Positions 1 to 38,024 of a stretch of 38,949 nucleotides of DNA are shown here, in pieces (positions within the stretch are counted from its first letter, which is position 1; each line of letters starts with the position of its first letter). The position numbers and the translations under genes are program-made. Under the pieces are notes generated by a model. The model was not told the DNA's origin, did not search any database, and saw only the letters and a list, made by a program, of their open reading frames with translations. The DNA comes from Cyclobacteriaceae bacterium (lineage in GTDB: Bacteria; Bacteroidota; Bacteroidia; Cytophagales; Cyclobacteriaceae), in contig DASYTA010000270.1 in the NCBI GenBank assembly GCA_036002745.1, positions 1 through 38,949 on the forward strand. Direction: 5' to 3'.

Positions 1-85
1 TGTCCTTAGACAATAAAGTCTCGGGCCGTTTTGACCACAATAAATGTGAATTGGAAAATCAATTGAACAAAATAGTTCCGGATTA
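1..85 (+). repeat. Transposon end with spaced TnsB-type sites (Tn7L-like)
   Basis: Terminal TGT; sites AGACAATAAAGTCTCGGGCCG (8-28) and GAACAAAATAGTTCCGGATTA (65-85) resemble Tn7 TnsB sites. Possible degenerate site at ~182-200. Confidence 0.85.
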
Positions 86-95
86 GTAACTGTCT

Positions 96-116
96 GTTAC
101 TAATATTGTTAGTAAC
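96..116. promoter_or_regulatory. Palindrome GTTACTAA-N5-TTAGTAAC, putative non-canonical LexA-type SOS box
   Basis: Perfect 8-bp arms; core CTAA-N5-TTAG (100-112) recurs at 19454-19466 and 37567-37579. Confidence 0.55.
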
Positions 117-2590: not shown

Positions 2591-2624
2591 AGTAAGAAGT
2601 GATACTCCAAGCGATGCAGAAAAA

Positions 2625-16156: not shown

Positions 16157-16163
16157 GACTCAC

Positions 16164-17660: not shown

Positions 17661-17661
17661 T

Positions 17662-18390
17662 TCATCCCGCTTTCTTTTGTATTTCTAAGAATGACATTAC
17701 AAGTTCTCTTTGCGCTTGTTGAAATCCTTTGTCTGTCCACTGGACATCCCATGTACCAGGTTTTCCATTTCGTATCCGTTGCAATTCAACTCTCCACTTT
17801 GCAAATGCAACACCGGGGAGTTCATCCAATTTTTCACTTGACAGCGAAGAGATCTTCCAACGAGACACACACGCGGTTGTGCTAAGCCGTTGATTGTTGT
17901 TGAGAATAAAACCCGTGACGTGACTTTTTTCAACAGCCAATTGCAGACGTCTTGATGCAGTAAAACTTAAGTCATTGAGTTCCCCAACCACAGCAGCCAG
18001 CGCACCACACTTCAACGATTCATCAATCGCCCACAATATTTCTTTTTCTTTGTTTGTGTCGATGAAAACAAATTTTCCGGGATCAATGGAAAAGTTCTTC
18101 AACCCTGGTGGAAACAATTTTCGTGATGAGCTAATCCATAGTACCGCACCATCATTTCCTATTAAGGTTGAAAGCAATCCACACAGAAATCCACTTGTTG
18201 CAGCTAGGTTTTCAGCACAGGGTGATAAAAATTCATGAACGGAACCGATAGGAAAGGATCGGTTGGGAAATGCATCTGCAATCGGTCCTAATGTTTCATT
18301 CAACTCGACATTATCGGCAAATCGAAGGCCTTGCAGCCGAAGAATATCTTCCCGCAGGATCTTGAAAATATCTGCCCTCGCTGATTGCAT
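17662..18390 (-). CDS. imuA: ImuA, RecA-like accessory protein
   Basis: FP.GSVHEF, ASRRLQLAVE, W.VEL.RIRNG.PG motifs; first gene of the imu cassette. Confidence 0.93.
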   Translation of the reverse strand: MQSARADIFKILREDILRLQGLRFADNVELNETLGPIADAFPNRSFPIGSVHEFLSPCAENLAATSGFLCGLLSTLIGNDGAVLWISSSRKLFPPGLKNFSIDPGKFVFIDTNKEKEILWAIDESLKCGALAAVVGELNDLSFTASRRLQLAVEKSHVTGFILNNNQRLSTTACVSRWKISSLSSEKLDELPGVAFAKWRVELQRIRNGKPGTWDVQWTDKGFQQAQRELVMSFLEIQKKAG

Positions 18391-18436
18391 AAAATATTAA
18401 GACCAATTCAGGCCCTTGCATTCAAAACTTTAAATT

Positions 18437-19033
18437 CTAATCAATTGTATAAGCTGGTTCTAAAAAATTTATCTTCATTGACTCTTCCTGGCGCTCGAAA
18501 TCCCTCCTTAACCTTTTTGTTCTCTTTACTTCTTTCTGATACAACCTTTCAAGCATATCTGGTGCAAATGGAACGCCATCAGCTTCTTCAAGTGGCAGCA
18601 CAAGAGGCTCGCTAGTTGCATCTCTTAGAAAACGATAAAGTTCATTAATTGTATAGGCCCACTGTGGGGGTGGCGAATTCTCCGGACGGGTCAATAATGC
18701 TTGAGTACTTTCATAAGCATCAAAGACCGCATCAATTTCTTGCTGGGTAAAAGGAGTGAATTTTAGAAAATTGATAAAGCGGTGTTCTTTGATATCTAGC
18801 AACTGAGGGTAGTCTTCTCTTGATTTAGCCAATGAGTAAACGTGATTCACCATGGATACTTTGAACAGGTCTGCTTTTCCTGGCAACACATCGAGGATCA
18901 TCCTTTTTGGATCAAACTTGTATTCGTACTTTTTCGAGACGATTTTAACATAAAGCTTGATCAGCCCCTCTCTTGTCTTTGGGGTAGCTTGTTTGTTTCT
19001 AAGTTCTTCATGAAGTTCTTCTGTAGTTTGCAT
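18437..19033 (-). CDS. Hypothetical protein (198 aa)
   Basis: Long ORF co-oriented with imuA, 46-bp gap. Confidence 0.75.
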   Translation of the reverse strand: MQTTEELHEELRNKQATPKTREGLIKLYVKIVSKKYEYKFDPKRMILDVLPGKADLFKVSMVNHVYSLAKSREDYPQLLDIKEHRFINFLKFTPFTQQEIDAVFDAYESTQALLTRPENSPPPQWAYTINELYRFLRDATSEPLVLPLEEADGVPFAPDMLERLYQKEVKRTKRLRRDFERQEESMKINFLEPAYTID

Positions 19034-19050
19034 AACATTAAGATTTAAGG

Positions 19051-19419
19051 TTAAACAGTCTCTAACTTTTTATTTTTTATTATAGAATTCATTGCTTCAT
19101 CAATCTCTTTGTAGAAGGGCTCATTGGTGAGATGAACAACTGCACGTTTCAAAAGCTGCTGAAGAACGTTGTCGTATGAATTGAGGTCAACACTTCCATC
19201 TCTTATTTCCAACAGCTTATCTTTTGCCTTAAACAAAATGTCCCCGTCAATTCTTGCTTCAAACTTGTAGCTCAGATACGTCCCCAGATCGCTGATCAAC
19301 CTGGTAATAATTATAGAGCGATGCTCCTTAATAATGCCCTTCAATTCCGCCACCATTACGTCGGCACTGGTGTCGGCTATTTGTTTACTTCCAAGGAGGG
19401 CTGATTTGACTGTTTTCAT
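19051..19419 (-). CDS. Hypothetical protein (122 aa)
   Basis: ATG start just downstream of the putative SOS boxes; 17-bp gap to the next gene. Confidence 0.75.
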   Translation of the reverse strand: MKTVKSALLGSKQIADTSADVMVAELKGIIKEHRSIIITRLISDLGTYLSYKFEARIDGDILFKAKDKLLEIRDGSVDLNSYDNVLQQLLKRAVVHLTNEPFYKEIDEAMNSIIKNKKLETV

Positions 19420-19453: not shown

Positions 19454-19486
19454 CTAAATTATTTAGTAAACTACTAAAATAAATAG
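19454..19486. promoter_or_regulatory. Tandem putative non-canonical LexA-type SOS boxes
   Basis: CTAA-ATTAT-TTAG (19454-19466) and one-mismatch CTAA-AATAA-ATAG (19474-19486), upstream of the imu-containing operon. Confidence 0.7.
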
Positions 19487-20315: not shown

Positions 20316-20762
20316 TCATTTATATTTTTGGAAGATATACGAAAAACATGGAGTAGCCGAAGTAAAAATCCCTTTCTGGTGTGCTTGATGATGTTTCTCG
20401 GGCAATTTCTTAAACAGGCTGTATCTTTTTTTATTTATTTTATTGACTGAGGTGTAATCGTAGATTGCGTCAACCATCATTATCACTTCAAGGTTACTGC
20501 AGTCTGTCGGCAGCTTAATATTTGTTATTTCCATTCCTATAAAAACAAACATTAACTCGTCAGTCCCTGTTGGAATATCAATTTTAAAATTTCCATTTAC
20601 GTCTGTAGTTCCCAGTACAACCTTGTCACCAGTTTGAATTTTTACTTCAGGCATAGCAGACAGGTCGGATTCACTAATAACTTTTCCTCTCAAGGACCTT
20701 GTTTGCCCATCGCATAAAAATGGGATCGAAAAGATTGTAAGGATGGCGAATAACGCTTTCAT
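20316..20762 (-). CDS. Secreted carboxypeptidase-regulatory-like domain protein; candidate immunity protein
   Basis: Signal peptide; GKVI...PEVKI...GTTDVNGNFKI...FIG pattern; 22 bp downstream of the toxin gene. Confidence 0.75.
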   Translation of the reverse strand: MKALFAILTIFSIPFLCDGQTRSLRGKVISESDLSAMPEVKIQTGDKVVLGTTDVNGNFKIDIPTGTDELMFVFIGMEITNIKLPTDCSNLEVIMMVDAIYDYTSVNKINKKRYSLFKKLPEKHHQAHQKGIFTSATPCFSYIFQKYK

Positions 20763-20784
20763 ATTCGTGTCAAATAGTTATTTG

Positions 20785-22809
20785 TTAATACTCGATTTCT
20801 GATGCCTTAGAATCTGTTGAAGATTGATTGGTAATTATAATAAACCTGAGAGATGGATTAATTTGTAACTGGCGTGCCTTATGAGCCATATCGCCGCCGG
20901 GTATACTCTGGCCGGAGGGGACTAGTCTGTCATTATCACCAAAGCGTGACAAGTGTGTATGGAAATCTGTGGTTATATCCATCGTACTGAAAAGGTCAGG
21001 TCTATTAAAACCAGAATTTTCTGTTTGAGCATCATTTTTACCGTATGCACCAATAAAGACGTTGCTTGTTGCAGTTTCACCTTTATTTGAAAGGTAGTAT
21101 CCACCCACTTCTTTGTCGACATAGTTTGATAATTTCAAAGCGAAGTCTCTTACACCAGCAAGACTTGGCTGACCACTTCCCCCAACCCCGATCACATTAC
21201 TTTTAGTCTGAAAATTCATGCCATTATTTAAAATTCCTTTTTCAATGCCTCCGATGGCAACTTTAGCTTCCCCTTTATGGGCTTTACTAACCAGGAACCC
21301 TAAGAAGCCTTCTCCCTTTTTTAAAACATTTCCGTTTTTGTCAGTTCTTACAATTCTATCCGGGTCTTTGTTCTTGTCTCCGACTTGAGTTATTTCCCCT
21401 GTCTTTTTGTTTAACGCAAAGTCTGTTAAGCCGCTGGGATCAACTCTATTTATCGGATTGTTTTGCACAAAATTATACGGGGTAACCCAATATCTTTTCT
21501 CGGCTGCAGGATCTATTTGCCAAAACCTTCCAATTGCAGGGTCATAAGATCTACTAATAACATCGTCAGAAAAATCGTCTTTCTCAGGTTCAATGAACTT
21601 TACAATCTTTCCCGTTAACCTGTTAATTTCAACTGTTCCAATTCTTGTTGTTTCTTCCTGGTCAAAAAACTCATAATTTTCTCCATCGCCAGCCGTTACC
21701 ATTTTAACTTTGTAATTGTAATTTTTGAACGGTTGTGGAGATTCATATTTATAGGGCTTTCGCGTTGTATCCTTTCTCACACGGTACAGCCAATTCAAAT
21801 ACATTTCTCTCGGCATTCTTCTGTAGCCGGCCTGGTGTATAGCGTAATAAGATTGCTCGAGCTGGGTGAACTCGTTCTTCATAACAGGGTCGTTCCAAAG
21901 TTTGCTAAAATGAACCACGCCTTTGTCTTTCATAGACCGTTCATATTGCTTTTTCAATAATTCCGCTCTCAATATCATCGCGTTGGGATAGTTGGTATAA
22001 TAGCTCAACGCTACGTCTAGCCATTTAACGGGAGTAGCAATGTCCATGTAACCGAATTTCTTGACATAGCCCTGAGCCAAGTCCGTGATGACATAAGAAA
22101 TCGTTTCTTTGGCCGACAGCGTGTCCATGTAAACCCCATCAGCAATAGCTTCTGTCTTAATATAACTATTGTGTTTTATTTCCGAATCAAACGGAAAACG
22201 CCCGGTTGTTAATTCTGTATTGTACCATCCGGTTTTATCACTCCATTGTTTAATGTATGTATGACTTGGTGTAATGGCTAACCAGGATTGTACACCGATT
22301 TCATCAGCAAGTATTTTATACAATGCAGGCAGACTATGGCAGTTACCAGTTTGTTCGTAAAGAAGTTTTGTCACAAACATTTTTGTCCAATCGTTTTCAC
22401 CAGTGAAATCATCCATATCATAAGTGAAGGGGACTTTTCTGAAACTCACTTTTTTATCAGGGCTCTGAAATTGCAACGAATCTTTCATTACCTTATAAAT
22501 AGCTCCTGCCAACAAAACCGCGTTGCGATCATTTTTATTGTAATCAAGACCGTCCATCGCTGCAACTGCCTTTGTCAGTTTGATCAACGCTTCAATCTGA
22601 AAAGTAAAATCTTCATAGCTTAACAAGTTTTCCGTGTACGCATTTTCAGTTATAAAAACTGCTCTTTTAAAAGACAATGGTTTCTCGTTTCTCAACATCT
22701 GATTGAGTTCATCAAACGCCAGGTCATAATAAACTTTTGCGCCTATGTCTTGTCCGAAAGAACTAATTGCCACGCTGGCAAATAGTAAGTGTAGAAGCAT
22801 TTTGTTCAT
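20785..22809 (-). CDS. Secreted transglutaminase-like (SirB1-type) + RHS core + JAB-like toxin fusion
   Basis: Signal peptide; TGNCHSLP..H.Y..WYNTELT; YDPAIGRFWQIDP...PYNFVQNNPINRVDPSG; C-terminal EVGGY...HTH...PS...D. Confidence 0.8.
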   Translation of the reverse strand: MNKMLLHLLFASVAISSFGQDIGAKVYYDLAFDELNQMLRNEKPLSFKRAVFITENAYTENLLSYEDFTFQIEALIKLTKAVAAMDGLDYNKNDRNAVLLAGAIYKVMKDSLQFQSPDKKVSFRKVPFTYDMDDFTGENDWTKMFVTKLLYEQTGNCHSLPALYKILADEIGVQSWLAITPSHTYIKQWSDKTGWYNTELTTGRFPFDSEIKHNSYIKTEAIADGVYMDTLSAKETISYVITDLAQGYVKKFGYMDIATPVKWLDVALSYYTNYPNAMILRAELLKKQYERSMKDKGVVHFSKLWNDPVMKNEFTQLEQSYYAIHQAGYRRMPREMYLNWLYRVRKDTTRKPYKYESPQPFKNYNYKVKMVTAGDGENYEFFDQEETTRIGTVEINRLTGKIVKFIEPEKDDFSDDVISRSYDPAIGRFWQIDPAAEKRYWVTPYNFVQNNPINRVDPSGLTDFALNKKTGEITQVGDKNKDPDRIVRTDKNGNVLKKGEGFLGFLVSKAHKGEAKVAIGGIEKGILNNGMNFQTKSNVIGVGGSGQPSLAGVRDFALKLSNYVDKEVGGYYLSNKGETATSNVFIGAYGKNDAQTENSGFNRPDLFSTMDITTDFHTHLSRFGDNDRLVPSGQSIPGGDMAHKARQLQINPSLRFIIITNQSSTDSKASEIEY

Positions 22810-22837
22810 AACCGATGCAATTAATTATTGATGATTT

Positions 22838-24487
22838 CTATTTATGTCTATTCAATTGAAGTTCGAGTTGCCGTCTCCTTATAATGTGTTGCCCTTTATT
22901 TGCCAGGTTGTTCATGCCCTCAAGCCATTTTTTGTAGGCCCAGTCCGGCATTTCCTTCCAGCCTAAGTCCCTTTTTACGTATGAAACTGCCGCTTCCGCT
23001 TTTTGTTTTATCGTTCGTGCTTGCTCATCGTTGTTAAATTTATCTTTAGGCATTTGGAATGATTCATACTGTCGCACAATATTATTCCACAGATCATTGT
23101 AGTAGCCTGCGTAAATCATATTTGCAGTTAAGTTCCTTGGAAAATATTGCTTTGCCGTTGTAGCCATTTGTAATACGCGATCATCTGTTCCAATTGTCTT
23201 CACGTAGGATAGGGCTAATGTAGTCATTAAGTATGCAATGGTTTCTTTCTCTGTTGATGGTCTCAAATAAATCCCGCTCTTTACTTGTTCAGTCGTTATA
23301 AAACCACTTTGCCAATGATAGTCGGTAGCGATAAACATCCTTGCAGTCAATTCTATGTTTTGCCAGTTTCCGAGATTGTCTTTGAAGGTAACATAAGAAT
23401 GTTGCGGGGCGAAAGCGATGTAAACGTCAGCCCTGAACATTTTTGCATACATATAATAGAGCATCGGCAAACTCATGCATTGGCCGCTACCAGTGCGCAG
23501 CAGTTTGCTTACAAAAACTTTTGTGATGTCTTTCTTCCCAGCATAATCCTCGTAGTCATAAAGCATCGGCTTTGACACAATGTTTCTCTCTTTCGCCTTA
23601 ATGTAAACTTTTGTGGTGTCTGTCATGTATTTGAAAATTGACATGACTTTGGAAAGATTGTCATCGAGGCTCACTTTGTCCTGGAGCATTAAGGCGGAAA
23701 TTACTTCGACACCATCCTGAAACATTCCGTTGAATTCTTTCCATGTCAATGTTTGGTCGTGTGCACTCTCCACCAACCAGGCTGCCTTTACAAAATCAAT
23801 CGGCTGCCTTCCATCTAGCATTGATTCAAGTTCATTGTATGATTTTACAAACCTGTCAGCTTTTAAACCATTGTGGATACCGAGTGTATAGTTGATTGTC
23901 GGTGTAAATAGTTCCTGATTGGCCACATTGAGAATTTGTTGTGATCGTACATTGTTTTGTTCGTAGGCTCTCAGGTCGGCGTCAATCATCATCTGGTTTC
24001 TTTGCTCGATTGATAGGCCATTTTCGTAAAGGCTTTTTGGTATTCCATAATTTATTTGTTGGGTTGGTGTGGCGATGGAACTGTTAAACTCAACCTCAGC
24101 TTGGTTTGTGAAAGCGGTATTTGGGTTCGGAATCTTTTTCTCATTCATCAGCTGCTGACCAAAATCATTCTGATTTTGGTATTTATAAAGTTCAGGATAT
24201 AACTCTTGACTTGTTTTGGTTTTTGGGGCTTTAAATAGTTCCTGTCGTTTTTGTTCTTCAGTCAGGTAAGGCCGGTAATTGTCGTTAATGAGCAAGTTAG
24301 GTATCACTTGGCCGTTCACATCCGTTTTAATCAGAAACAGAAATACCAACTGTATCCAGCCTATCGTTTTGAAGCTCTCGGCCGAGAGCAAGTGTATTGC
24401 ATTATTATGGGGTTGTAAGCAGACAGTTGTTGCACTCTTGTTTAAAGCGTATTGTGCGGTGATGAGAAATAGTATTATGTAGACCAT
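22838..24487 (-). CDS. Transglutaminase-like (SirB1-type) protein, paralogue of the downstream gene's N-terminus
   Basis: FVSKLLRTGSGQCMSLP..APQHSY..WQNIELT parallels FVTKLLYEQTGNCHSLP..TPSHTY..WYNTELT; start uncertain. Confidence 0.75.
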   Translation of the reverse strand: MVYIILFLITAQYALNKSATTVCLQPHNNAIHLLSAESFKTIGWIQLVFLFLIKTDVNGQVIPNLLINDNYRPYLTEEQKRQELFKAPKTKTSQELYPELYKYQNQNDFGQQLMNEKKIPNPNTAFTNQAEVEFNSSIATPTQQINYGIPKSLYENGLSIEQRNQMMIDADLRAYEQNNVRSQQILNVANQELFTPTINYTLGIHNGLKADRFVKSYNELESMLDGRQPIDFVKAAWLVESAHDQTLTWKEFNGMFQDGVEVISALMLQDKVSLDDNLSKVMSIFKYMTDTTKVYIKAKERNIVSKPMLYDYEDYAGKKDITKVFVSKLLRTGSGQCMSLPMLYYMYAKMFRADVYIAFAPQHSYVTFKDNLGNWQNIELTARMFIATDYHWQSGFITTEQVKSGIYLRPSTEKETIAYLMTTLALSYVKTIGTDDRVLQMATTAKQYFPRNLTANMIYAGYYNDLWNNIVRQYESFQMPKDKFNNDEQARTIKQKAEAAVSYVKRDLGWKEMPDWAYKKWLEGMNNLANKGQHIIRRRQLELQLNRHK

Positions 24488-25982: not shown

Positions 25983-27953
25983 ATGATCTTGCACTATGTA
26001 TATATTTTAGACTATGAAGGTGTTTTTATCAACATAGGATTCAACCTTGGCGGTGCATATCGATTTAAATATGACATTAACTCTAAGCATCTAGAAGTTA
26101 CAGAAAATCCATTTTATACAAAAGATTTTTTTAACCTACTTGATTCAACTGAAAACGGTAACGCTGCTATTGGGAATGTGAGTGGAATCATTGGCGGGAA
26201 TGGTTCTGGAAAATCTAGTTTTCTCGCTTTTATGAAGACAAATTTCGTGCGCGGAATGTCTGGGATGGTGTACCCAGTGATTGTTGCCCTTACGACTGAT
26301 GATGGGGAACTGAAACTTTACCATGATAGAGGTATTCCAATCGAAAATAATTCAGGAGATTTTTTAGGGTTTGAAATCATTGAGACATCTTCTAATGCAA
26401 CGAAGCATGTGATTCCTGGTGCAGGTGTCATTAATATTTCAAATCGATCAGAGATTGATGAACTAGTAGAGACGGACTTCGTCTTTCTCTCAAATGTTTT
26501 TGACAATGTTGTGCAATATGAATTTCAGGGGCTGCACAATTTATCAACTGATTTTTTGCTAAAAAATGATTTGAAAGCAAAAGCGGAATTGATTAACACC
26601 TGGGGGATTAATTTGATGGCAGCAAATTCCGAGATTGATTTTCATAAATTTCAAGATCTTCACCGTCAACTCGAATTTATAAATGCAAACAAAATGAGGG
26701 AAAACGTTCCCTTCGATTTACCCAATAAGGTAATTGTTTCAATCGGAAAGGATTTATTGTTCAGCAAGGACAGTGAGATTGGATTACAGGCAGAGTCAAT
26801 GTTAAATGCGTATGAATATCAAGATTTTATTCGCCGGTTCAAATCCTACGCCCAACTTCAGCTTGACAAAAATGATTTCAAATCAAGAGGGGTAATTTAT
26901 ATAACTGCAAATGCATTGCTGAATTATTTTTATGAGATAGCAATCTTTACCAGGTATTATAGAATTTCTGGTTTAGATGATTTTAAAATCGAATCTTTCC
27001 AAAATTATCAGCAAGCTTTTGATAATTTAATCCAATTTTTGGTGACTGATCTCGAAAATTTCAAGCGCGTCAGTGATAAAGATAGGTTTGCCTATGAACC
27101 TTACGGGAAAGATCTAGACCAGCTAAAGGGTCTTAAGGAATTGTTAGATTTTTTATTGCTAAATCTCTCAAAACAAAATGTTGGCGAAAGAGGAAATAAT
27201 TTTCTAATTGAAGGTAGCGTAAAGTACATAGATGAGTTCTTCTCAATCTACAGGCGGACGTACAGATATGATTCATACCTAAATTTCACATGGTATGACT
27301 TGAGTTCTGGGCAAAAAGCTTTTTTAAATATTTATGCACGGCTTTACTCATTGAGTGATCAAATTATCTCTCAAAGGGGTGCCAACCTAATACTCAAAAA
27401 AAATATAATCGTGCTCGTCGATGAAGGAGAGGCTTTTCTTCACCCGAATTGGCAGAAATCATTTCTGACAAATTTATTAGAATTCCTCCAGTCCAATTTT
27501 AGATCTGTGAACTTTACACGGAGCATACAGTGCATACTGACTTCAAATTCACCTTTCCTTGCATCGGATTTACCTAGCTCTAATGTGTGTTTTCTGAAAA
27601 AAGATAAACAAGGTGTAACTAAGATTCATGATAGTTTGGAGGACAGGAAACAGACATTTGCCGCAAACATTCATTCTTTATTAACCGATGCCTTTTTTAT
27701 GGAGCAGGGAACAATTGGAGAGTTCGCAAAAAGAAAAATAAACAAGGTGATTGAGTTGCTACAAAAGAAACAAAGCACGATCGAAAGCAATAGAGAACTG
27801 ATTGAGAATACAATTAATATGATTGGTGAGCCGGTTATTAAGTCAAAGCTTACTCAGATGTTAGCAGAGCGAATTTCAGTTGACTACATTAATTTGGGCA
27901 ATCGCATAAGGTCTCTGGAAGAGGATGTTAAAGAGCTTAAAAAGAAGCAATAG
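25983..27953 (+). CDS. ABC-type ATPase, Septu PtuA-like
   Basis: GGNGSGKS, LSSGQ signature, LVDEGEAFLHPNWQ, TSNSPF..SDLP, TFAANI, IGEFA; followed by an HNH gene. Confidence 0.85.
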   Translation: MILHYVYILDYEGVFINIGFNLGGAYRFKYDINSKHLEVTENPFYTKDFFNLLDSTENGNAAIGNVSGIIGGNGSGKSSFLAFMKTNFVRGMSGMVYPVIVALTTDDGELKLYHDRGIPIENNSGDFLGFEIIETSSNATKHVIPGAGVINISNRSEIDELVETDFVFLSNVFDNVVQYEFQGLHNLSTDFLLKNDLKAKAELINTWGINLMAANSEIDFHKFQDLHRQLEFINANKMRENVPFDLPNKVIVSIGKDLLFSKDSEIGLQAESMLNAYEYQDFIRRFKSYAQLQLDKNDFKSRGVIYITANALLNYFYEIAIFTRYYRISGLDDFKIESFQNYQQAFDNLIQFLVTDLENFKRVSDKDRFAYEPYGKDLDQLKGLKELLDFLLLNLSKQNVGERGNNFLIEGSVKYIDEFFSIYRRTYRYDSYLNFTWYDLSSGQKAFLNIYARLYSLSDQIISQRGANLILKKNIIVLVDEGEAFLHPNWQKSFLTNLLEFLQSNFRSVNFTRSIQCILTSNSPFLASDLPSSNVCFLKKDKQGVTKIHDSLEDRKQTFAANIHSLLTDAFFMEQGTIGEFAKRKINKVIELLQKKQSTIESNRELIENTINMIGEPVIKSKLTQMLAERISVDYINLGNRIRSLEEDVKELKKKQ

Positions 27954-29046
27954 AAGTATGTTTTTATACAAAAGTGGCCCTGGAGGAAATTTTGATCAAC
28001 TGGCGAAAATACATTTCGATCAACTTAAAGGGATTCGAATTTTTAAGAACGGCGGCAGTGGCCACTATGCTTTTTCAATCATTAAAAAAATCGACAATAA
28101 TAGTAAAGCAAGGCGGATTGGAAGAGAATTTTTCATGGACCTGCAGCGTGATAACTACAAGTTGGCATTGGAGATCATATCGGGAAAGCCTAAGCGTCTA
28201 GCAGAAATTGTTGAGAGCATTAATCAAAATATTGCGTCAAGTAGATATCCTGAAATTTTTAGAATATCACGAAAGGGCGTCTCGCTAACGAAGTTCGGCC
28301 AAAAGGTCGAAAGTACGTTTGACTACGGTACCTTTTCAAATAAGAATACTCCAAATTGGAATGCCTACCTGCTTGCAGATTTAGTTGGAATCAATGTGTG
28401 CCCTTATTGCAACCGAGGGTACACTTTTACAGCTAAGAATACTAACGAGAAAATTGTTCGACCCGAGTTTGATCATTTCTATTCGAGAGAAAAACATCCC
28501 TACCTTAGTCTATCTTTCTATAATCTTATTCCATCTTGTCACATTTGCAACTCCAATCTTAAACATAAAGTTGAGTTCTCGGTAGATACCCACTTACACC
28601 CTTATGAGGAAAGCCTTGATGAGTTGGTGAGATTTAGCGTGCGCCTCAAAAAGAAAAATACTGGTTCGTTAGTTGATGAAAAAAAGTCATTTGGTGAAAG
28701 TTTTTTTTATGGGGATTTAGGCAGCTTCGATTTAGTCCTGCGAGCTGCGAAAAGAGGGATTAATCGTAAAACTCTTAAACGCGCAATGAGAAGTGTACGA
28801 ACGTTTAGAATTCGAGAGCTGTATCAAAAACATAAGGACATGGTAATCGATATGATTTTGAATACTATTGTGTATGACGACAGCCAACTAAACTCTCTTC
28901 TCAACAACTACGGCAATTTATTTCGGGATCGGAACGATGTATTAAGGCACATAACAAAAAATTATGTAGGTCTTTCGGAAATGCCTAACAGGACATTCTC
29001 CAAGTTAGCAAAAGACATTCATACCGAATTTGGCCTAATTTATTGA
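27925..29046 (+). CDS. HNH endonuclease, Septu PtuB-like (probable ATG at 27958)
   Basis: CPYCN, EFDHFY, NLIPSCHICNS.LK, HPY motifs. Confidence 0.87.
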   Translation: MLKSLKRSNRSMFLYKSGPGGNFDQLAKIHFDQLKGIRIFKNGGSGHYAFSIIKKIDNNSKARRIGREFFMDLQRDNYKLALEIISGKPKRLAEIVESINQNIASSRYPEIFRISRKGVSLTKFGQKVESTFDYGTFSNKNTPNWNAYLLADLVGINVCPYCNRGYTFTAKNTNEKIVRPEFDHFYSREKHPYLSLSFYNLIPSCHICNSNLKHKVEFSVDTHLHPYEESLDELVRFSVRLKKKNTGSLVDEKKSFGESFFYGDLGSFDLVLRAAKRGINRKTLKRAMRSVRTFRIRELYQKHKDMVIDMILNTIVYDDSQLNSLLNNYGNLFRDRNDVLRHITKNYVGLSEMPNRTFSKLAKDIHTEFGLIY

Positions 29047-29053
29047 ATCCCAT

Positions 29054-30553
29054 TTAAGGTGAAATCACTGTTGATTGTTGCAAAATATTCAAGCATCGAC
29101 TTAAAATCTCCGGGTTGTTGATAATGACAATACAAAGTTTAAGCCTGGTTCTTGAGACGATTTGAAACAGCATTTTAGTTGGGTGATAATATGGCCTTTT
29201 TTGATAGTTTTTAGTTGATAATGTAACACCTCTATAATAAAAGTGTGCGTCAATCACGGCTGCAACATTGTTAAATTCTTGCCCAATTACTGTATGCGCG
29301 TTGTCGGGCTCCACTTCCACATTATGGTGTTCATATGGATGTGTTGAAATCCTTGACGGTGTATAGTTTATTATCTTCCAGTCTTCTGTTCTTAGCTGAT
29401 ACAAATAGGTTCTGGCTTCTTGATAGTTTTCAAAAAAGCGGATCTCTATATTAGAATACTTGTATTTTTCTATAGGTCTATTCTTGTCAAACAGGCACTG
29501 AATAAATGAAGCAACTTCTTTATTTGTTCGGATTTTAGTTGTCAGTTCAAACGGTTTTGTGGTCACTTCTTTTTCAATTTTCTCCGCTATGTTCTCGTGA
29601 ATTTCTCCCCTTCTTAAAGTCTGGAACCCGTCGTATGAAAAAATGCAATTGTTCGAGTTTTTCTTCACCTCCCTGATTACATGTGTCAATTGAGTTTGGT
29701 AAATCCTTTGCGCTTCATCAATAATAATTAGAAAGTATTTTGATAAATCTTCACTTGTTAAGGTCTTTGCAGGGATAATATTCCAGCCACATTTGTCACG
29801 GAGAGTAAGATGACCGGCGTTCAGGTATCCGCAATGAACTATTAGAGTCTTCTTTTTCTGTAAGATCTCTTTTGCAATATCGAATGTGAGCAAGGTTTTA
29901 CCAGTACCCGCTCTACCCTTTATAGAGAGAATGGAATAAGTTGGAGTGCTCAACTGTTCCAAGGTTTTTTCTTTAATCATTTCCTGATGCGCCGTAAGGA
30001 AGTACTTTCCGTCAATAAATTCTTGGGTTGAATTGAATGGGGAAACTAGATAATTGGATGGGTTAAAATAACTGTCAATGTCTACGATCTTCTTTACAAT
30101 TTGAGAAGCCAGGGTTTCTAAAAGTTGGGTGATGGTCGTTTCTATCAGGCATTGGTCTTCATCAATAGTATATAGTTTTTTGTCTTCTGATACATATGAA
30201 TAATTATATGTCTTTCTTTTCAAGAAACTCAAATAGTATTTATTCCGGATTAGTTGAGTTTTGATTTTTTCATGCGTGCTACTTCTTTTCAACTCAATAT
30301 TGACAACCGATTCATCGTCTATTCTTAGTAGATCGAACTCTTTAGAAATTTGGGGAATTGTATATCCAATGAAGTATTTATCGAAAAGTGTCATTTTTGG
30401 ACTTTGAGATTTCAAATGATTCACCAATACTTCCAGATCTTTCAATTCATCATCTTTGATTTGCACTGAATGATATTCTAAGTATGAGTTAAACAATTCT
30501 GAGCTTAGGTTTTTATAAGCACTGAGAATTGAAATAAGATTAGCTTCTGTCAT
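29054..30553 (-). CDS. PD-(D/E)xK-like nuclease fused to SF1/DUF2075-like helicase
   Basis: EFDLLR...VNIELK; GRAGTGKT; IIIDEAQR; GQEF; SRTR. Confidence 0.8.
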   Translation of the reverse strand: MTEANLISILSAYKNLSSELFNSYLEYHSVQIKDDELKDLEVLVNHLKSQSPKMTLFDKYFIGYTIPQISKEFDLLRIDDESVVNIELKRSSTHEKIKTQLIRNKYYLSFLKRKTYNYSYVSEDKKLYTIDEDQCLIETTITQLLETLASQIVKKIVDIDSYFNPSNYLVSPFNSTQEFIDGKYFLTAHQEMIKEKTLEQLSTPTYSILSIKGRAGTGKTLLTFDIAKEILQKKKTLIVHCGYLNAGHLTLRDKCGWNIIPAKTLTSEDLSKYFLIIIDEAQRIYQTQLTHVIREVKKNSNNCIFSYDGFQTLRRGEIHENIAEKIEKEVTTKPFELTTKIRTNKEVASFIQCLFDKNRPIEKYKYSNIEIRFFENYQEARTYLYQLRTEDWKIINYTPSRISTHPYEHHNVEVEPDNAHTVIGQEFNNVAAVIDAHFYYRGVTLSTKNYQKRPYYHPTKMLFQIVSRTRLKLCIVIINNPEILSRCLNILQQSTVISP

Positions 30554-30587
30554 TGGTACTGAACATCTGTATTTTTGAGTCGTTGAA

Positions 30588-31085
30588 TCATGACTTCTTA
30601 CTGACCAATTCTACTTTAATTTGTCTTAGGAGCTTAATTGTTTCGCTATGGTCTTTACTGACATCTTTGGACACCTGAATTATTACAAATGACAAAAAGA
30701 ATAACATGCATAAAATCATTAAAGTAATTGCCATCAATAAATTAAGATAGTCGCTGAATTCAGGACCATTAACTGTTTTAGAATCTACCTGGGTGAACGG
30801 AGTGAGGGGGAAGAGAAATGCTGTAAATACTACTCCTGCGACACCGAAAACAATCTCAGGACTCAGACCTTTTTTTGCATCGGAATTATATAATTCTATA
30901 AGTGACGAAACTCCTTCTATGGATAGCAAATTCCTAGTCTTAAGAATCTTTTTCAGAATCTTAACTCTTTTTTCTGGCGTAGGGCTCCGACTAAAGAAAT
31001 TAACTATCCTTTGAAAAAAGGTAGTTGATTTTCTACTTCGATTAATCTTTTTTGAGTAGGCACTATTTATATCTTCTATTATCAT
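30588..31085 (-). CDS. Hypothetical 2-TM protein (165 aa)
   Basis: Two hydrophobic segments (IVFGVAGVVFTAFLF; LLMAITLMILCMLFFLSFVII). Confidence 0.65.
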   Translation of the reverse strand: MIIEDINSAYSKKINRSRKSTTFFQRIVNFFSRSPTPEKRVKILKKILKTRNLLSIEGVSSLIELYNSDAKKGLSPEIVFGVAGVVFTAFLFPLTPFTQVDSKTVNGPEFSDYLNLLMAITLMILCMLFFLSFVIIQVSKDVSKDHSETIKLLRQIKVELVSKKS

Positions 31086-31264
31086 TTACAAAACGTTTCA
31101 AGCATGTTAAACTCCGACCTTCATAATGCTTTTATATTCGTTCGAAGCTGAAATGGGTTTTCATCACACCATGGGGATATTCGGAAATATTTGAAACCGA
31201 TTTTAGATTTTATTTCTTCGCTCAAGAAAGTTGGTGTTTTGTTGATTCGGGCATAGTAATACGT

Positions 31265-33547
31265 TTATCTGTACTGAATGAGGTTTTCGGTAAGCTGTTC
31301 TAAACTATCTCTAAGATCAGAAAGTCTGATAAATGATTGCCTGTATTTTTCTTGTTCGTCAACGCTTAGAGGGTTGAGTTTTATTTCTTTGATCTGCAAG
31401 TGAATGTCAGAAAAATAGTTCGTAATTTTTTGATCGGCGTAGTTCTTAATAATAGCGACGTATTCGTCGATCACGCTTTGATACTGCTTTTGGATGTCAT
31501 TGAAGACGATGGCGCTGTGCGCTTTGGTCGTTTCCATTATCCGTGATATTTTTCTAACCCTCCTACTTTCGGCAGAAAAAATTAGGTGTCCAAAAAAACC
31601 GACTAGTGCTCCGACAACTAGCGCGCCAGGGCTTAGAATGGCTGCAAAAAACGCACCTAAAATACCCATTCCGAAGGACTCTGATAAATCAATATCAGGT
31701 ACTTTCATGGACTCAATTGGTGCTGTATTCACGTATCTGGTATCAGTGCTCGCGTTGAGTAGTTCTCTAACTTTTTTTAAATTTCCTTCAATCCAAATGT
31801 CAGCATCATTTTTGAGTTGGTTTTGGAGCCTCAAGTGCTCTTCATTTCCTTCGTTAATTATTTTGTTTACGCCATCAGATAGAAATTTTCTAATCTCAGT
31901 GGCTTTGGGTAAATCCTGGGCAATTGGGTATGACTTTAAACCATTGTGAAGATTGCTAAGTAGCTGAGTCTGTTTGGTCTCAAGAAATAACTCCAGGGAT
32001 TTTTTGATATCTAAATGTTTTATTCGGAATAGATTATTTAGTTCGGGCTGCTTATCGGTAATTTCCTTTATAAGACCTCTTAACAATGCGAGCTTTTCGG
32101 AATCAATTAACCTTGCCTTTAAAATGTCTTCAAAAACATAACTACCCTTCCGAAGATCGCCTACGGTTGAAATAAGTTTATCAATTCCGAGTCTATTTCC
32201 AGTAAGTAAAAACGCCCATAAGTCCTCTTCAAAAGAGTCTAACTGATCAACTTCGTCTGTTCGATTTTTCGGTGACAGCCTTTTATTGAGGCTAAGATTA
32301 GCGCTAACATAATAGAGGTTTTTACTCACTTTATCAGCCAAGTTTAATCTTTGCATATCATGCTTTATCCTTTTTTTTAATTCCTCAAGTCTGTCGGACT
32401 GAAGAACGTCGGTCTTGTTGAAGATCAAGAATATCTTATCAGAAGAAGCTCCAATTTCATTTATGTGTTTTTTGTAATCGGATCTGAAGACGAAACTACC
32501 AGTCGCCGCCGAGGAAACCTCGATGATATAAATTACCGCATTGAACGTTTTTACAAAACTCCACGTATCCTGGAGAATATCATCATCGGGGTCGTCCAAC
32601 CCAGGTATGTCAAAAAAAGAAACGCCTTTCTCCAAACTTTCATTAACCATCGAAATTGATACAAGCTTAACTTTCTTCTCATTGGCAACGTTGAAATCTT
32701 GAGAGGCGAATTGTTTAACTGTGTCCTTCGTAAATGGCTTACTGGTTTTAGTACCATCTTTAAAATATATCTCTATTTGATCTTTGTCACCAGGAATAAC
32801 TTGAATTGCTACGCCGGTAGTTTGCCAAACGCCAACGGGTGAAATGTCTCTCCTTAATAAAGCATTAATTAACGAACTCTTTCCTACTTTAGATGGTCCG
32901 ACGACAGCAACTCTGTAAATTGCTTTTTCAAGATTGCTAGTTAGATTTTTAACGATGTTGCCTGTCGATTCAAATCCAAACTGAGCAGATAGAGAATCAA
33001 AACTTTCTATCCGCTCCTTCACACATTTTTTCAGGTTAAAATAAGTTCCTGGAATTACCGCTTTAGTGTGATTAGTTTTTAAAAGAAGTCGTCGTATTTC
33101 TGATTTAGATTTTGTATTGAATTCATCTGATGAAATAAACTTTACTGATACACTAGTTTTTGTAGACCAATCCGGATTTGTTACACTCAATTCGGAAACA
33201 AACGCGTCGTCAATCCATTTTATGAAAAACTTGTCGAGTTGCTGAACATACAAAACCAATAATACTCTGATGTTTGCAGATGCCCATGATTTAATTTTGT
33301 CAATTTCTATTTTCACTGAATGTCTTTCATTTTTCGAATCAATTTTTGCTGTCGATTTTAATTGAACGTGAAAGAATAAACTTTCCAATTTTGATGATCC
33401 TGCATCGTTTACTTCGTTGCCCACTTGAACAAAGGCATCTACTCCGTAGTCCTTTTGAGCCCAGTTTACTACCCAGGGATCTACAAGTTTCTCAAATTCA
33501 CGTTTTGAGTTGTTCTCCTTTCGATGTGTCGAGTGATATTGGGGCAT
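31265..33547 (-). CDS. DUF4365-like nuclease fused to dynamin-like GTPase (760 aa)
   Basis: DYGVD...HVQLKST; G1 GPSKVGKS, G2 T, G3 DIPG, G4 NKTD; helical stalk with a hydrophobic paddle GILGAFFAAILSPGALVVGALVGFFG. Confidence 0.82.
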   Translation of the reverse strand: MPQYHSTHRKENNSKREFEKLVDPWVVNWAQKDYGVDAFVQVGNEVNDAGSSKLESLFFHVQLKSTAKIDSKNERHSVKIEIDKIKSWASANIRVLLVLYVQQLDKFFIKWIDDAFVSELSVTNPDWSTKTSVSVKFISSDEFNTKSKSEIRRLLLKTNHTKAVIPGTYFNLKKCVKERIESFDSLSAQFGFESTGNIVKNLTSNLEKAIYRVAVVGPSKVGKSSLINALLRRDISPVGVWQTTGVAIQVIPGDKDQIEIYFKDGTKTSKPFTKDTVKQFASQDFNVANEKKVKLVSISMVNESLEKGVSFFDIPGLDDPDDDILQDTWSFVKTFNAVIYIIEVSSAATGSFVFRSDYKKHINEIGASSDKIFLIFNKTDVLQSDRLEELKKRIKHDMQRLNLADKVSKNLYYVSANLSLNKRLSPKNRTDEVDQLDSFEEDLWAFLLTGNRLGIDKLISTVGDLRKGSYVFEDILKARLIDSEKLALLRGLIKEITDKQPELNNLFRIKHLDIKKSLELFLETKQTQLLSNLHNGLKSYPIAQDLPKATEIRKFLSDGVNKIINEGNEEHLRLQNQLKNDADIWIEGNLKKVRELLNASTDTRYVNTAPIESMKVPDIDLSESFGMGILGAFFAAILSPGALVVGALVGFFGHLIFSAESRRVRKISRIMETTKAHSAIVFNDIQKQYQSVIDEYVAIIKNYADQKITNYFSDIHLQIKEIKLNPLSVDEQEKYRQSFIRLSDLRDSLEQLTENLIQYR

Positions 33548-33571
33548 AATGTCTGGTTTAAGTCGACCAGT

Positions 33572-36500
33572 TTAGTCATCAAAAAAAGATCTTTTCAAAA
33601 ATAGCTCTCTTGCCTCTTCCAGAGTTCTCTTTTCTGAGTGGTGAACCATGTCATCGACAAATATTTTGTGCTCAAGATATTTGAGACTTTCAAATTCCCC
33701 CAACCCTTCTTGTATGGCTTTCCACTTACCCAAATAGGTTTCAGAAATATTTATTCTGCCCGAAAAGAATCCGCCTGTAGCCCCCCAATTTATCCTTTTG
33801 AAGTCTTCCAACTTCGAATTGTATTTCAGGAAAATTTTCATAAAGAAAATGACTTCACCTTTCCAAACTTCACAGACTAGATCCATCGCAAGTTTTGCTT
33901 TCGAAAGAATCTTGGCGTTTTTAGAGAGATAGCTAATTATATATTTTTTAAAATCCACATTGCTTTCGCTAAATGTCTCGTTAAGCGTCGTATAAAAATC
34001 ATCAGGGTATATATGTTCTCTTTTTGATAGGAAATTTAAGAATTGAGATGTCAAGGCCTCGAGGTTTGGATGGCCAACCAGGCCTTTTATAAATGAAGAG
34101 TCCTTAGATCCGTGAAAATTTTTTCGTCCAAATACTTCACGACAGAACTCCATCAAAAATGTGTCGTCTTTAGTAATTAACGTGTTAAAGCCTTCCCCTC
34201 GAAAATCGAATGTGTCAACAATTAAATATTGCATTATGTATGCTTTCTTGAGAAGATCTAAAGGAATATCTGTTGCTGCACTTTTAATGAAAAATTCCCG
34301 AGGAAGTATAATCCGACATTTTGATTTCCGCCATTTCTCCAGCAAAAGACTCAAGATTTCCGATTGCACAGTTGATCCAAACGAACCTATCCAAGTGAAG
34401 TCGAAGTAAAATCCTTCGCTTTGATCCTTAATGGTGTCTGTTAAGGTTGTTCTATAATTTGATGCAATTTTATCAGACTTGATATTTTGAATGAAAACAC
34501 CTATCCAATCTACAATAGATTTAAAAGTGTGGTTCTCAATGAAAGATAAGTAGGTGTCGTGTAGATCGCCTTTTTGGGCAAAAAGTGGAATTGTTTGGTA
34601 TGGGACGAAGTTGGCGGGGTTCGCGGTCTTTATTATTCCTTCGAGAATTGTCGCAGTCTTATTTACTTGATCATTTGTGAGGTAATGCTTCGATAGAATA
34701 TCTAAAGAATAAAATAGTCCATGACTGTAGTGATCGCCAATCAGTGGATGCCAGGTATTAACGAATTCTACTAAATCGCTTAATTCCTCCATAGAAAGCT
34801 CACCAAAGTTCTTTATAACTAGATTTGCTTTGTACCTGGTGTATTTTTCGATATCGCCTTTGTAGTTGATCCTTTCGGGATCGCTTGCCCACGAAAGAAT
34901 TGAATACATTTTGAATGTTTTCGAGTTTAAGTATCGCGATCTAATTTTTTGCGCAAGGTCAGATTTGATCTTAAGTTTTAAAATCAGGTTCTCCACCCTG
35001 GCTGCGCTTATTATTTGAACGAGATTGGAAGCATCATATTTGTTTAAAATTATTTTGGACAAATAAGAACTATCATACTGGATAAAATTCTTAATCAAAT
35101 CTATTCGGTGGTCGGCATAATGCGTGATTATGTTTGTGAAGGAATTTGCATCGCCATCAAATTTTTTGAGGATTTGATCCCATATTAACTTTCGATGTCT
35201 CCTTAAGGTTGCATTCAAAGGCGCAGAATGTTGAGCCAAGGAAATCGAGTTCCTCCGACGCATTGGACCATTTGTAGTAAACGTTGAATAGAGAAACTGA
35301 TTTGCAGTACTAAGAAATAATCTTTTATAGAGTGGATCACGATTCCAATTCTTGACAATAAGATTCAGATATTTTCCTTGTTTCTCATAGTTTGGATATG
35401 TGTCATCGCTATAAATCAGTCTGCCATTTAATATTTCTGCTAACTGGGCAAAATGATTCGGAGACTTTTTGACAAATTCAATGAGCAACTGAAGGGCGGG
35501 TAGAAAATCTTTATTATTATAATGAAGAAAATTGATTACCAAACGAAAATGTTTTGACGTTTGATAAATTGAATCAATCTTCGAGTGCGTTTCCCGATCT
35601 TGAACTGATAGTTGTTTAATATGGTTGTCGACGAATTGGAACACTTGATTTTGACAGTAGAACCAGAAACACTCGAAAAACAAAATTTTTTCTTTTTCAT
35701 CCTGAATTGTTTTTAGCTTACCCAGAAGAGAGGTAACTATTTTCTCTTTAATGTTGTCGTAGTCAAAAGTATTGTTTGCCCCTATTACCGCTTCCTTGAT
35801 TTGATTTGAGTATTCAGGAAAGAATTCATGCAGTAAAGAGGTTAGGCTCAATTTTTTCTCTAGTAAAAATGCTTTGTAAAAGGCATATGTTTGAAGGTTC
35901 TGTTCTGTGATTCTGATCAAGTCTCCATCAATTTCAACGAATTCAATATTCTCAAGATCATTTGCAGATTCCCAAAAAGGATTGGCTATCCAGATTAAAG
36001 GAACTGAGTATTTTCCGAGCTTGTTCTGAACTAAGATCAATTGCCGTAAATACAGATAATATTCCAAGACATTTAATATGGCGTGGGGATGAAAATATTT
36101 TTTGCTCTTTATCAATGTTATTGAAGTATTGGTCGAAGATCTCCGTTGCATTTGAAATGCGTTTTAAAGAGTTAGTTTCTTTAGCAACTCGTGCAGCCAT
36201 CAGCGCAATTCTTGGATTCCCTAGTGAGAGGCTAAGTATTTTGTTTACGGCGAGCCGTCCAAAGTTGGCGACGCTTCGAAGGATATCGATTAGCGCTCTC
36301 TCCTCCAATGGAGCAATGTGGTCAATTCTGGGTTTAAGATTTTGTAAGACGTGTTCAAGTTCCTGTCGTGCGTATTCTCTCACTGTGAGAACAAGACGAA
36401 TGGTCATTCCTTCGAGTAATGATTGGGTCATGAGATCTACCATTCGTGCGCACCTATTGGCATCATCAATAAATACTAGGTAGTGTTTGTTGTGTCTAAA

Positions 36501-37271
36501 ATAGGTTCGTACGTCGTCTAATGAAAAAGAGCCTTTATCTTTTAGACAGAATACAATCGTATCCGGATTTTCATTTTGATATTGGCGGATGGCTTCAAGA
36601 GCTAGCTTGGTTTTTCCGACACCAGGGGAGCCCGATAGTATGTATATTGGATTTTCTCGGATGGACTCTTTTGCTCTCCCTAACTCGGTTTCTCGATGAA
36701 GAAATTTGTTTGAAAGTGGCGTGCTGATTCCTCCGTATTCATATTCTCTAATATATTCATCTATTGTCAAGATCTGATTAGTCTCGACGGGCAGACCTAG
36801 ATGCTTGGCTAGAAAAGAATGTCTTCTGATTTCTTTTGCCCAGAAATCAATGTCACAGAAAACTACTTCAATATATTTTGATTTTAATGAAGAGAGAATT
36901 TCGTTCCTCGTTTTAAGTGGTATTGGATGAGATGATGCTAATATGATTTGGCGAATCTCTTCTAACTTAATGCCGGTTTTGATTGAATCTTGACAGTTCA
37001 TTAAGTCGCCGCGCAGTTTTTTAATATACTCCGACTTCTTCTTACTTTCTTTGGTTGTGTATTCAACCAAGATGTACTTCTCATTGTCTAGAATAATTAA
37101 TGTATCAGGTGTACCTTGTTTTGGTGCCTTCTTTCCAACAACAAGTCCAATCGGTTTGATCTCTTTGAATTTAATTTGGGAGCAAAACATAAAATAATCG
37201 TCCCCCAATCTATGGAACGTACTCGCATCAACTTCTAATAGCTTATTCTGAATTGACTCTAGTGACGGCAT
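33572..37271 (-). pseudogene. Restriction-endonuclease-like + STAND NTPase + helical sensor (Avs-like), split by a 1-nt frameshift at ~35974-35978
   Basis: 5' ORF 35958-37271 has GTPDT..VEYTT, GSPGVGKT, IDDAN, LVLTVR and GNPR. Removing one T from TCC TTTTT GG joins it to 33572-36151 as ..SFWESANDLENIEFVE.., giving ~1232 aa. Confidence 0.75.
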
Positions 37272-37566: not shown

Positions 37567-37579
37567 CTAAAAAGTTTAG
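37567..37579. promoter_or_regulatory. CTAA-N5-TTAG putative SOS box next to the right-end TnsB sites
   Basis: CTAA-AAAGT-TTAG followed by TA; 4 bp from the innermost TnsB-type site. Confidence 0.45.
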
Positions 37580-37583
37580 TATA

Positions 37584-37653
37584 CAATCCGTGACTATTTT
37601 GAACAAGTCCGTAACTATTCTGAACTAGTCCGCACCTTTTTTGTTCACGCACA
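37584..37653 (-). repeat. Transposon end with three contiguous 21-bp TnsB-type sites (Tn7R-like)
   Basis: Minus strand: TGTGCGT GAACAAAAAAGGTGCGGACTA GTTCAGAATAGTTACGGACTT GTTCAAAATAGTCACGGATTG. Confidence 0.9.
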
Positions 37654-38024
37654 ATGAAATAAGGATATTTCACTTTACCAACGTGTCGCCATTCATAAAA
37701 ACCTGTGCTGGGTAGCAAACAGCGCTTTCCAGTTTTCGTGGAATCCTTGAATGCGTTTGTTGTGTAGGAGTTCTCGCTAACACAATTCAAGGTGTTTGCT
37801 ATTTTCGGGTAATCCTTTGTGGTAGCAAAATGCGGAATAAGCCCCCACTTGTATAACTGAAGCTCTCGGGGTTTATCAGCTGTTAGCACAAGGCCTGGTT
37901 TATAGTCAAAACCGTTTTCATAGAATTGCGCGGAATAAATTTCGGCCATTACTGCAGCATAGGAAGCGCTGTAGTAATTGGCAACATCATCAATGGTTTC
38001 GCGCTGTTGTCTGTGATAACACAT
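37654..38024 (-). pseudogene. 5' part of the resident SRAP gene, interrupted by the transposon
   Basis: MCY start, ENGFDY, WGLIP, RCLLPSTGFYEW, KYPYF. Similarity stops at the TGT end, and the AGL and H-RMP motifs are missing. Confidence 0.9.

Follow-up and report, generated by a model that had tools for sequence, protein, structure and literature searches.

Why does a Tn7-like transposon lie inside a gene of the SRAP family while carrying an SRAP gene of its own, and is that gene its attachment site? The element, 37.7 kb long, lies in a metagenomic bin (719 contigs) of a soil Cyclobacteriaceae bacterium, on contig C270, which is the whole of the stretch analyzed here (38,949 bp, hereafter the window). 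The original prediction held that a TnsD or TniQ protein reads the catalytic-motif codons of SRAP genes and that the cargo copy makes up for the interrupted one. Literature is cited below for those parts of each source that were available.

The element and its two TniQ-family proteins

The element is an intact, complete and genuine Tn7-like transposon with TnsABC, TniQ and TnsD and without Cas (Table 1). Its tnsA, tnsB, tnsC and TniQ-family genes lie together on the minus strand (225-6940), with tnsB, which had no family match in Pfam or NCBIfam, assigned by homology and position only. The termini are TGT...ACA with repeated TnsB sites, and about 30 kb of cargo separates the tns genes from the right end. 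Among 30 element and flank proteins, the Pfam scan named no TnsE, TnsF, integrase family or cas family, and PADLOC named no cas family among 14. We ruled out a chimeric assembly, as four junctions with matching duplications were recovered from two assemblers. Contig depths were 10.5 for the element, 6.1 for the SRAP half, 3.0 and 3.6 for the junctions and 2.7 for the empty SRAP allele, values that are compatible with two sites and are not copy numbers. The element is likely active.

Table 1. Features of the element and its flanks, in window positions
Feature	Position	Strand	Basis
Left end: terminal TGT and TnsB-type sites (about 8-28 and 65-85)	1-85	+	site 65-85 matches right-end repeats at 15-17/21 bases; C524 and C217 both join here
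LexA-type box CTAA-N5-TTAG in left end (extended palindrome 97-115)	100-112		exact match; PWM 16.4, 10th-ranked distinct genome site
tnsD, 493 aa: TniQ core, TnsD zinc region, C-terminal HTH; likely target reader	225-1706	-	PF06527 and PF15978
tniQ, 295 aa, lacking the C-terminal DNA-binding region; paralog of tnsD	1703-2590	-	PF06527; 32% identity to TnsD493
tnsC, AAA+ ATPase	2625-4148	-	PF05621/PF13401; clade of 8 metagenomic homologs at 41-61%
tnsB, transposase, open frame	4129-6168	-	32% over 634 aa, E 8e-104, to gene in tnsB position of a glmS-resident element
tnsA, endonuclease	6149-6940	-	PF08722 and PF08721
Cargo SRAP, 365 aa, long subfamily; FYEWR 15-mer at 9541-9555	9013-10110	+	PF02586
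Cargo SOS mutasome operon: two genes of no assigned family, imuA, imuB, dnaE2	12935-19419	-	Pfam, NCBIfam
LexA-type box upstream of mutasome operon	19454-19466		exact match; PWM 23.9
Cargo defence genes: PDC-M62A/B ATPase and HNH pair, Nhi/AbiO-like helicase	25983-30553		PADLOC E 4e-153, 1e-82, 1e-175
Weaker LexA-type box abutting third TnsB site of right end	37567-37579		exact CTAA-N5-TTAG; PWM 11.2, list cut-off 12
Right end: three head-to-tail 21-bp TnsB-type sites (37584-37646) and terminal ACA	37584-37653	-	graph branches into SRAP and ssb-promoter flanks
Target-site duplication ATGA (4 bp here; 5-bp AATGA probable in other assembly)	37654-37657	+	flank comparison; protein P0061
Resident SRAP, N-terminal half, 123 codons	37654-38024	-	PF02586 positions 1-128
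Candidate TnsD recognition region: SRAP codons PxTGFYEW; decamer TTTATGAATG at 37690-37699	37690-37712	-	fixed-register profile scores

The two TniQ-family proteins differ in their predicted DNA-binding regions. The model of TnsD493 (pLDDT 81) matches Tn7 TnsD(1-318) with Z 20.8 over 273 residues, and its residues 346-392 match HTH domains with Z 5-7; a single-sequence fold of TnsD (pLDDT 36) was uninformative. TniQ295 ends before that HTH region. In a tree of the first 175 residues (41 rows), both proteins group with P0002, P0003 and the second TniQ-family protein of the relative G045, the last on a long branch (support 97/83), and stand apart from the glmS-homing TnsDs. Since the host glmS flank holds no element end and neither protein groups with glmS TnsDs, the attTn7/glmS pathway does not apply here. 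The simplest history would be loss of a glmS-type TnsD followed by local duplication, in line with the available text of PMC10293859.

Two insertion sites in one population

The SRAP gene (PF02586) is interrupted as first described: the terminal ACA at 37653 falls within the Ile codon of KYPYFI, and all coordinates given for the junction and the FYEWR codons hold. The C-terminal half (121 codons, PF02586 positions 123-212) is on the minus strand of contig C524, which overlaps window bases 1-141. Because this half adjoins the left-end TGT, the split is real. An empty SRAP allele occurs in the same sample as the interrupted one, according to the assembly graph of run X1 (possibly the source sample). 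The left flank had been predicted to end in ATGAA beside the remainder of the SRAP gene; the remainder was found, but the flank ends in AATGA, one base off. The right flank begins ATGAA, which leaves a shared ATGA, and the run X1 contigs agree.

A second junction at this position is suggested by P0061, an SRAP protein from a 44,046-bp JGI contig (the TnsD of the element is on a JGI contig of equal size). P0061 ends KYPYFI-CA*, and the right end starts TGT GCG TGA, which reads through as C-A-stop. Judging from this protein translation rather than from DNA, that assembly most likely has one extra base and hence a canonical 5-bp duplication, AATGA. The tail points to two junction alleles at one SRAP position and fixes the start of the duplication. 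The second allele suggests repeat insertion, though one insertion with uneven gap repair, or an assembly error, could produce it as well. In a protein search the read-through tail was seen in P0061 only; 44 other short SRAP matches, known from protein sequences alone, stop at scattered positions with no pile-up at this codon.

The identical element also occupies an ssb promoter in the same population, in the same orientation as in the SRAP gene. Contig C217 ends in the element's first 141 bases, with the flank GCGAC about 105 bases upstream of an ssb gene, and the run X1 graph forks at 37653 into the SRAP flank and a flank starting GCGAC. The duplication here is thus a clean 5 bp, as in the Tn7-like class. 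The far side of this site is absent from the assembly. Upstream of ssb is a conserved motif of about 50 bp that the second right flank matches; 30 bases in this comparison come from the population's own flank and the remainder from relatives. This motif is intact in 27 of 29 genus loci (one is without upstream DNA and one without the motif), and this ssb gene is found in 72 of 80 genus genomes. GCGAC marks the downstream edge of the motif, which the right end faces. Such an insertion need not be harmless, even with four ssb genes in the host. Homologous elements at unrelated loci had been named in advance as evidence against SRAP targeting, and the identical element in a conserved ssb promoter partly amounts to that.

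The ssb motif (L079-L107; L063:142-245) is non-coding, with 10-bp periodic repeats TTTAC AAACG ... CGAAAGTAA. The gene that it precedes is an ssb paralog of only 110 aa, often accompanied by a small, divergently oriented Zn-ribbon-like gene. With no second full match in the genome, it is not a genome-wide regulon box. We also rejected it as a LexA box, as only 2 of the 29 ssb loci score over 12.

Searches for relatives returned no close element with a mapped site. The close clade consists of eight metagenomic TnsC proteins (41-61%) known from proteins alone. Against genome contigs, the TnsD query matched nothing and the TnsC alignment matched two distant Bacillus loci. A metagenome scan gave at least 37 distant loci (best segments 22-29% among the matches listed, and one 49-residue piece at 45%), viral scans gave none or one distant locus, and plasmid matches were all under 60% (29-32% among the matches listed). 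Searches of genomes (100 of relatives, 400 of the family, 176 of the genus, 400 of the phylum) yielded distant elements only. The family and genus searches contained 13 distant TnsABC-type elements (TnsB 25-33%), of which five lie behind a gene that we take to be glmS from its C-terminal sequence, one (G246) lies elsewhere, and the other seven are unmapped. The glmS relatives (G045, G123, G142, G191, G430) resemble the present element in their Cyclobacteriaceae-level hosts and TnsB (26-33%), and G045 also has two TniQ-family genes. They differ in keeping a 600-aa glmS-type TnsD and in sitting behind glmS.

The G246 element (G246:C11, about 72,630-102,420; L065-L067) is of another Tn7-like family; it has two long TnsD-like genes, and its ends, TGGGG...CCCCA, are non-canonical. 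It occupies a non-glmS intergenic site with a GTTAG duplication (read by eye), and a nearly identical tns block is present in G532:C52.

SRAP genes as a candidate attachment site, and the cargo copy

The original prediction drew attention to the FYEWR 15-mer that the resident and cargo SRAP genes share. Both occurrences of TTTTATGAATGGCGA are confirmed, on the minus strand at 37686-37700, 33-47 bases from the junction, and in the cargo SRAP, and it occurs nowhere else in the genome. However, it is less special than it appeared: it is simply the FYEWR codons, and it recurs in 1 of 29 other genus SRAP genes. Its first 12 bases occur in 4 of the 29 and in the host's SRAP gene on contig C97. We rejected identity of the 15-mer as evidence in itself. 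The C97 locus (L064; G000:C97) is a third SRAP gene, uninterrupted, near a tyrosine integrase and with the same TTTTATGAATGG codons.

SRAP codons could be a dedicated attachment site, with the cargo SRAP replacing the lost gene and the ssb promoter as a near-cognate secondary site. The position of the codons fits: the FYEW codons occupy +35 to +44 in Tn7 numbering, inside the footprint range of Tn7 TnsD (+23 to +58; PMC2918618, available part), which agrees with the original prediction that TnsD reads them. There are possibly two independent insertions at the same base, SRAP genes in general resemble the ssb motif (median p 0.06, 32 genes), and a Heimdallarchaeota element that disrupts a methylase gene offers a precedent (10.1101/2025.07.27.667033, available part). 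Against this, the resident type of SRAP occurs in only 60 of 176 genus genomes, and FYEW(R) is encoded by 25 forms of the 15-mer across 29 genus genes. The 65 SRAP matches outside the host all have frames of at least 244 aa (one with an internal stop), and the short SRAP proteins described above show no pile-up at the insertion codon. Homologous elements had been expected at SRAP genes; in the flanking DNA examined, none of the 13 distant elements lies beside SRAP and 5 are at glmS. These elements and genus genomes thus offer no independent example of SRAP targeting. The ssb insertion likewise does not support SRAP as the one attachment site.

The cargo gene does not favor replacement either. 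It shares 44 of 96 and 49 of 115 residues with the two resident halves (43%-46% identity). Its own subfamily is found, at 64%-73%, at all 10 genus loci chosen for long frames, none with tns matches within about 10 kb and three directly beside dnaE2-imuB-imuA. An association of SRAP with this cassette has been described (PMC3765255, available part), and the host has two further SRAP-family genes, on C97 and C616. Given the separate subfamily, the mutasome association and the additional host genes, the cargo SRAP is likely a passenger of a mutasome cassette rather than a selected replacement, and the proposal that it compensates for the knockout appears weak. A dedicated SRAP attachment site is unproven, and we regard it as quite improbable.

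The element has further cargo. Genes of 198 and 122 aa (18437-19419) head the mutasome operon and had no Pfam, PHROG or NCBIfam match; the 122-aa gene is found again next to SRAP or imuA at eight genus loci, and on C186 with two LexA-type boxes. Two related-looking secreted proteins of 549 and 674 aa (20316-24487) had no Pfam match, and the longer has an RHS-core-like stretch followed by a possible deaminase- or JAB-like tail. Defence-type cargo (25983-37271) also includes a DUF4365-dynamin fusion and an apparently split STAND NTPase, with frames of 437 aa (35958-37271) and 859 aa (33572-36151).

A possible motif common to both targets, and known systems

When the two targets are aligned on the start of the duplication, TTTATGAATG in the FYEW codons falls opposite the ssb-promoter repeat TTTACAAACG at equal spacing. 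Both sites contain TTTAYRAAYG, ending 32 bases before the duplication, with this part of the ssb site supplied by the sequences of relatives. Scored on a profile of the ssb motif, the decamer in the SRAP flank had a raw p of 0.0006-0.0009, or 0.03-0.05 corrected over all windows and sizes. The whole 55 bases gave p 0.08, and windows set in advance from Tn7 gave p 0.065 (+23 to +58) and 0.021 (+31 to +54). A wider pattern, CC-N4-ACA-N4-TTTA-N2-AA-N-G, drawn post hoc, fits 11 of the 27 ssb promoters and has two occurrences in the assembled genome. We note that these p values are marginal and that the idea of a shared motif was formed after the sequences were seen. TTTAYRAAYG alone occurs 185 times in the genome, the C97 SRAP gene beats the resident one over the footprint window (p 0.001 versus 0.065) yet is uninterrupted, and in L079, the closest ssb homolog, the decamer is degenerate. 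The likeness of the two sites is therefore suggestive of a real shared signal but does not establish one.

These marginal statistics, with two unrelated genes hit, would also be expected if targeting were relaxed, that is, if loss of a glmS-type TnsD left little sequence choice (perhaps with a bias to SOS-opened loci) and both sites were accidents. Both TniQ-family proteins come from a non-glmS lineage, and Tn5469 is an untargeted Tn7-like element according to Table 1 of PMC11406308 (available part). Yet the graphs show only two left and two right junctions, and a second allele occurs at the same SRAP base. In the ssb promoter, the insertion coincides exactly with the border of a conserved non-coding motif, towards which the right end points. 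Of the readings weighed, we consider relaxed targeting the least probable.

We tentatively prefer, at somewhat less than even confidence, that one TnsD reads a short motif found at both targets, the ssb promoter and the SRAP gene, and sets the right end at a constant distance of 32 bases from it. TnsD493 would bind roughly the wider pattern at +35 to +57 and recruit TnsC and TnsAB in the manner of Tn7. The genus-wide ssb promoter would be the chromosomal home, and SRAP genes, with PxTGFYEW codons resembling the motif, would be second targets giving access to phage-related DNA. This reading is favored by the same-register score, the second SRAP allele, the presence of an HTH in TnsD493 only, the empty glmS and a phage-related neighbor. 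It is weakened by the dependence on one population and two sites, the use of relatives' sequence for the ssb motif, the marginal p values, the 185 decamers, the uninterrupted C97 gene, the degenerate L079, the possible harm of an ssb-promoter insertion and the reading of the 5-bp SRAP allele from a protein.

The phage-related neighbor is a C524 gene 1.6 kb from the SRAP half, with homologs at 82% and 74% on two IMG/VR phage contigs and in none of 176 genus genomes. There was no SRAP gene in the two matching phage stretches. On the thin support of one gene, a prophage-like target region would fit, and SRAP genes are reported in temperate phages (PMC3765255, available part). Access to other mobile elements without TnsE or Cas, also part of the original prediction, gains from this neighbor and from the lack of a named TnsE or any Cas. 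No other element was found in an SRAP gene. One of the phage contigs sharing the C524 gene has a reverse-transcriptase-like gene (L149:8422-9375) with what we take to be a DGR-type start. The motif-plus-end pattern had 39 matches in viral contigs, none with SRAP, ssb or tns, and we treated these as chance.

The phage context could instead reflect two pathways, in which the ssb promoter is the home target of TnsD493, insertion into mobile DNA, including phage SRAP, depends on TniQ295 (with or without a host or phage factor), and the likeness of the motifs is chance. Dual TniQ/TnsD elements with chromosomal and mobile-element pathways are the norm (PMC11406308, PMC9881144, available parts). A conserved sequence and a canonical duplication mark the ssb site; the SRAP site, next to a phage-related gene, is polymorphic. 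However, TniQ295 is without the C-terminal DNA-binding region and the element encodes no Cas partner, the sites are alike in the same register, and two junction alleles occur at one SRAP position. We consider two pathways a doubtful, if serious, alternative to one TnsD with a shared motif.

LexA-type boxes in both ends raise the possibility of a link to DNA damage. The Bacteroidetes LexA box is CTAA-N5-TTAG, and SRAP and ssb are among the regulated genes (PMC8565304, available part). Exact boxes number 67 in 4.27 Mb against about 40 expected, and simple arithmetic puts the chance that both ends have a box in their outermost 120 bases or so at roughly 1 in 300,000. Strong host boxes precede genes that we take to be recA, dinB and splB. 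There was no such box at the ends of the 11 distant relatives scanned. The boxes may gate transposition by the SOS response, or may form an outward SOS-controlled promoter able to drive ssb at the second site. If the former, they would couple movement to DNA damage. The fullest account joins this gating to the shared motif: one TnsD would find, in SRAP catalytic-region codons and the ssb promoter, both a chromosomal home and a phage route without TnsE or Cas, and host LexA bound in both ends would free the element only after DNA damage, when phages are induced. As a whole, we consider that account unlikely.

If the targeting is real, SRAP genes and the ssb promoter join the known Tn7 landing sites, a Bacteroidota TnsD with two natural targets becomes available for comparison for the first time, and a Cas-free, TnsE-free route to phage DNA is suggested. 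The boxes in the ends would connect Tn7-family transposition with the SOS response in a way that can be tested. New attachment sites alone are found often. Because of this, and because disrupting a gene and carrying its homolog already has a tested precedent (10.1101/2025.07.27.667033, available part), the value of the locus is in the shared-motif and SOS-gating parts, both as yet proposals based on one population. In a search body without most subscription papers, a whole-word search found no co-mention of Tn7 with SRAP. Among the papers listed in related searches, there was no spelled-out form of the SRAP name, no combination of Tn7 with yedK, DUF159 or HMCES, and no "ssb promoter" or LexA. 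SRAP is also absent from the available main texts of PMC10293859, PMC8649781 and the archaeal preprint. A targeting rule based on a short motif common to SRAP and the ssb promoter, seen here in one population only, is thus absent from the literature searched.

Compared with known systems, the element is closest in plan to Tn7, with the tnsA-tnsB-tnsC order, TGT/ACA ends with TnsB repeats, a 5-bp duplication (at the ssb site), the TnsD fold (Z 20.8), and a right end facing a candidate motif inside the +23 to +58 footprint. Unlike Tn7, it leaves the host glmS site unused, has no named TnsE, pairs a short TniQ with a 493-aa TnsD, and targets a promoter and a gene interior. Tn6022/AbaR elements (comM, TniQ and TnsF) similarly insert within a gene beside the codons of a conserved motif, but they require TnsF, of which the Pfam scan named none here, and the present target is an accessory SRAP gene. 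Dual TniQ-TnsD elements and CASTs I-B, I-D and I-F3 Tn7017 (PMC10293859, PMC11406308, available parts), share the tandem short TniQ and long TnsD, apparently from local duplication, whereas the present element encodes no CRISPR effector and its short TniQ is without a known partner. The clade VIII Tn7-like element of Heimdallarchaeota also disrupts a gene and carries a homolog of it (10.1101/2025.07.27.667033, available part). Its methylase attachment site was confirmed by assay and its cargo methylase is 75% identical, in contrast to a candidate site, a 43%-46% identical cargo SRAP and a second, unrelated site here.
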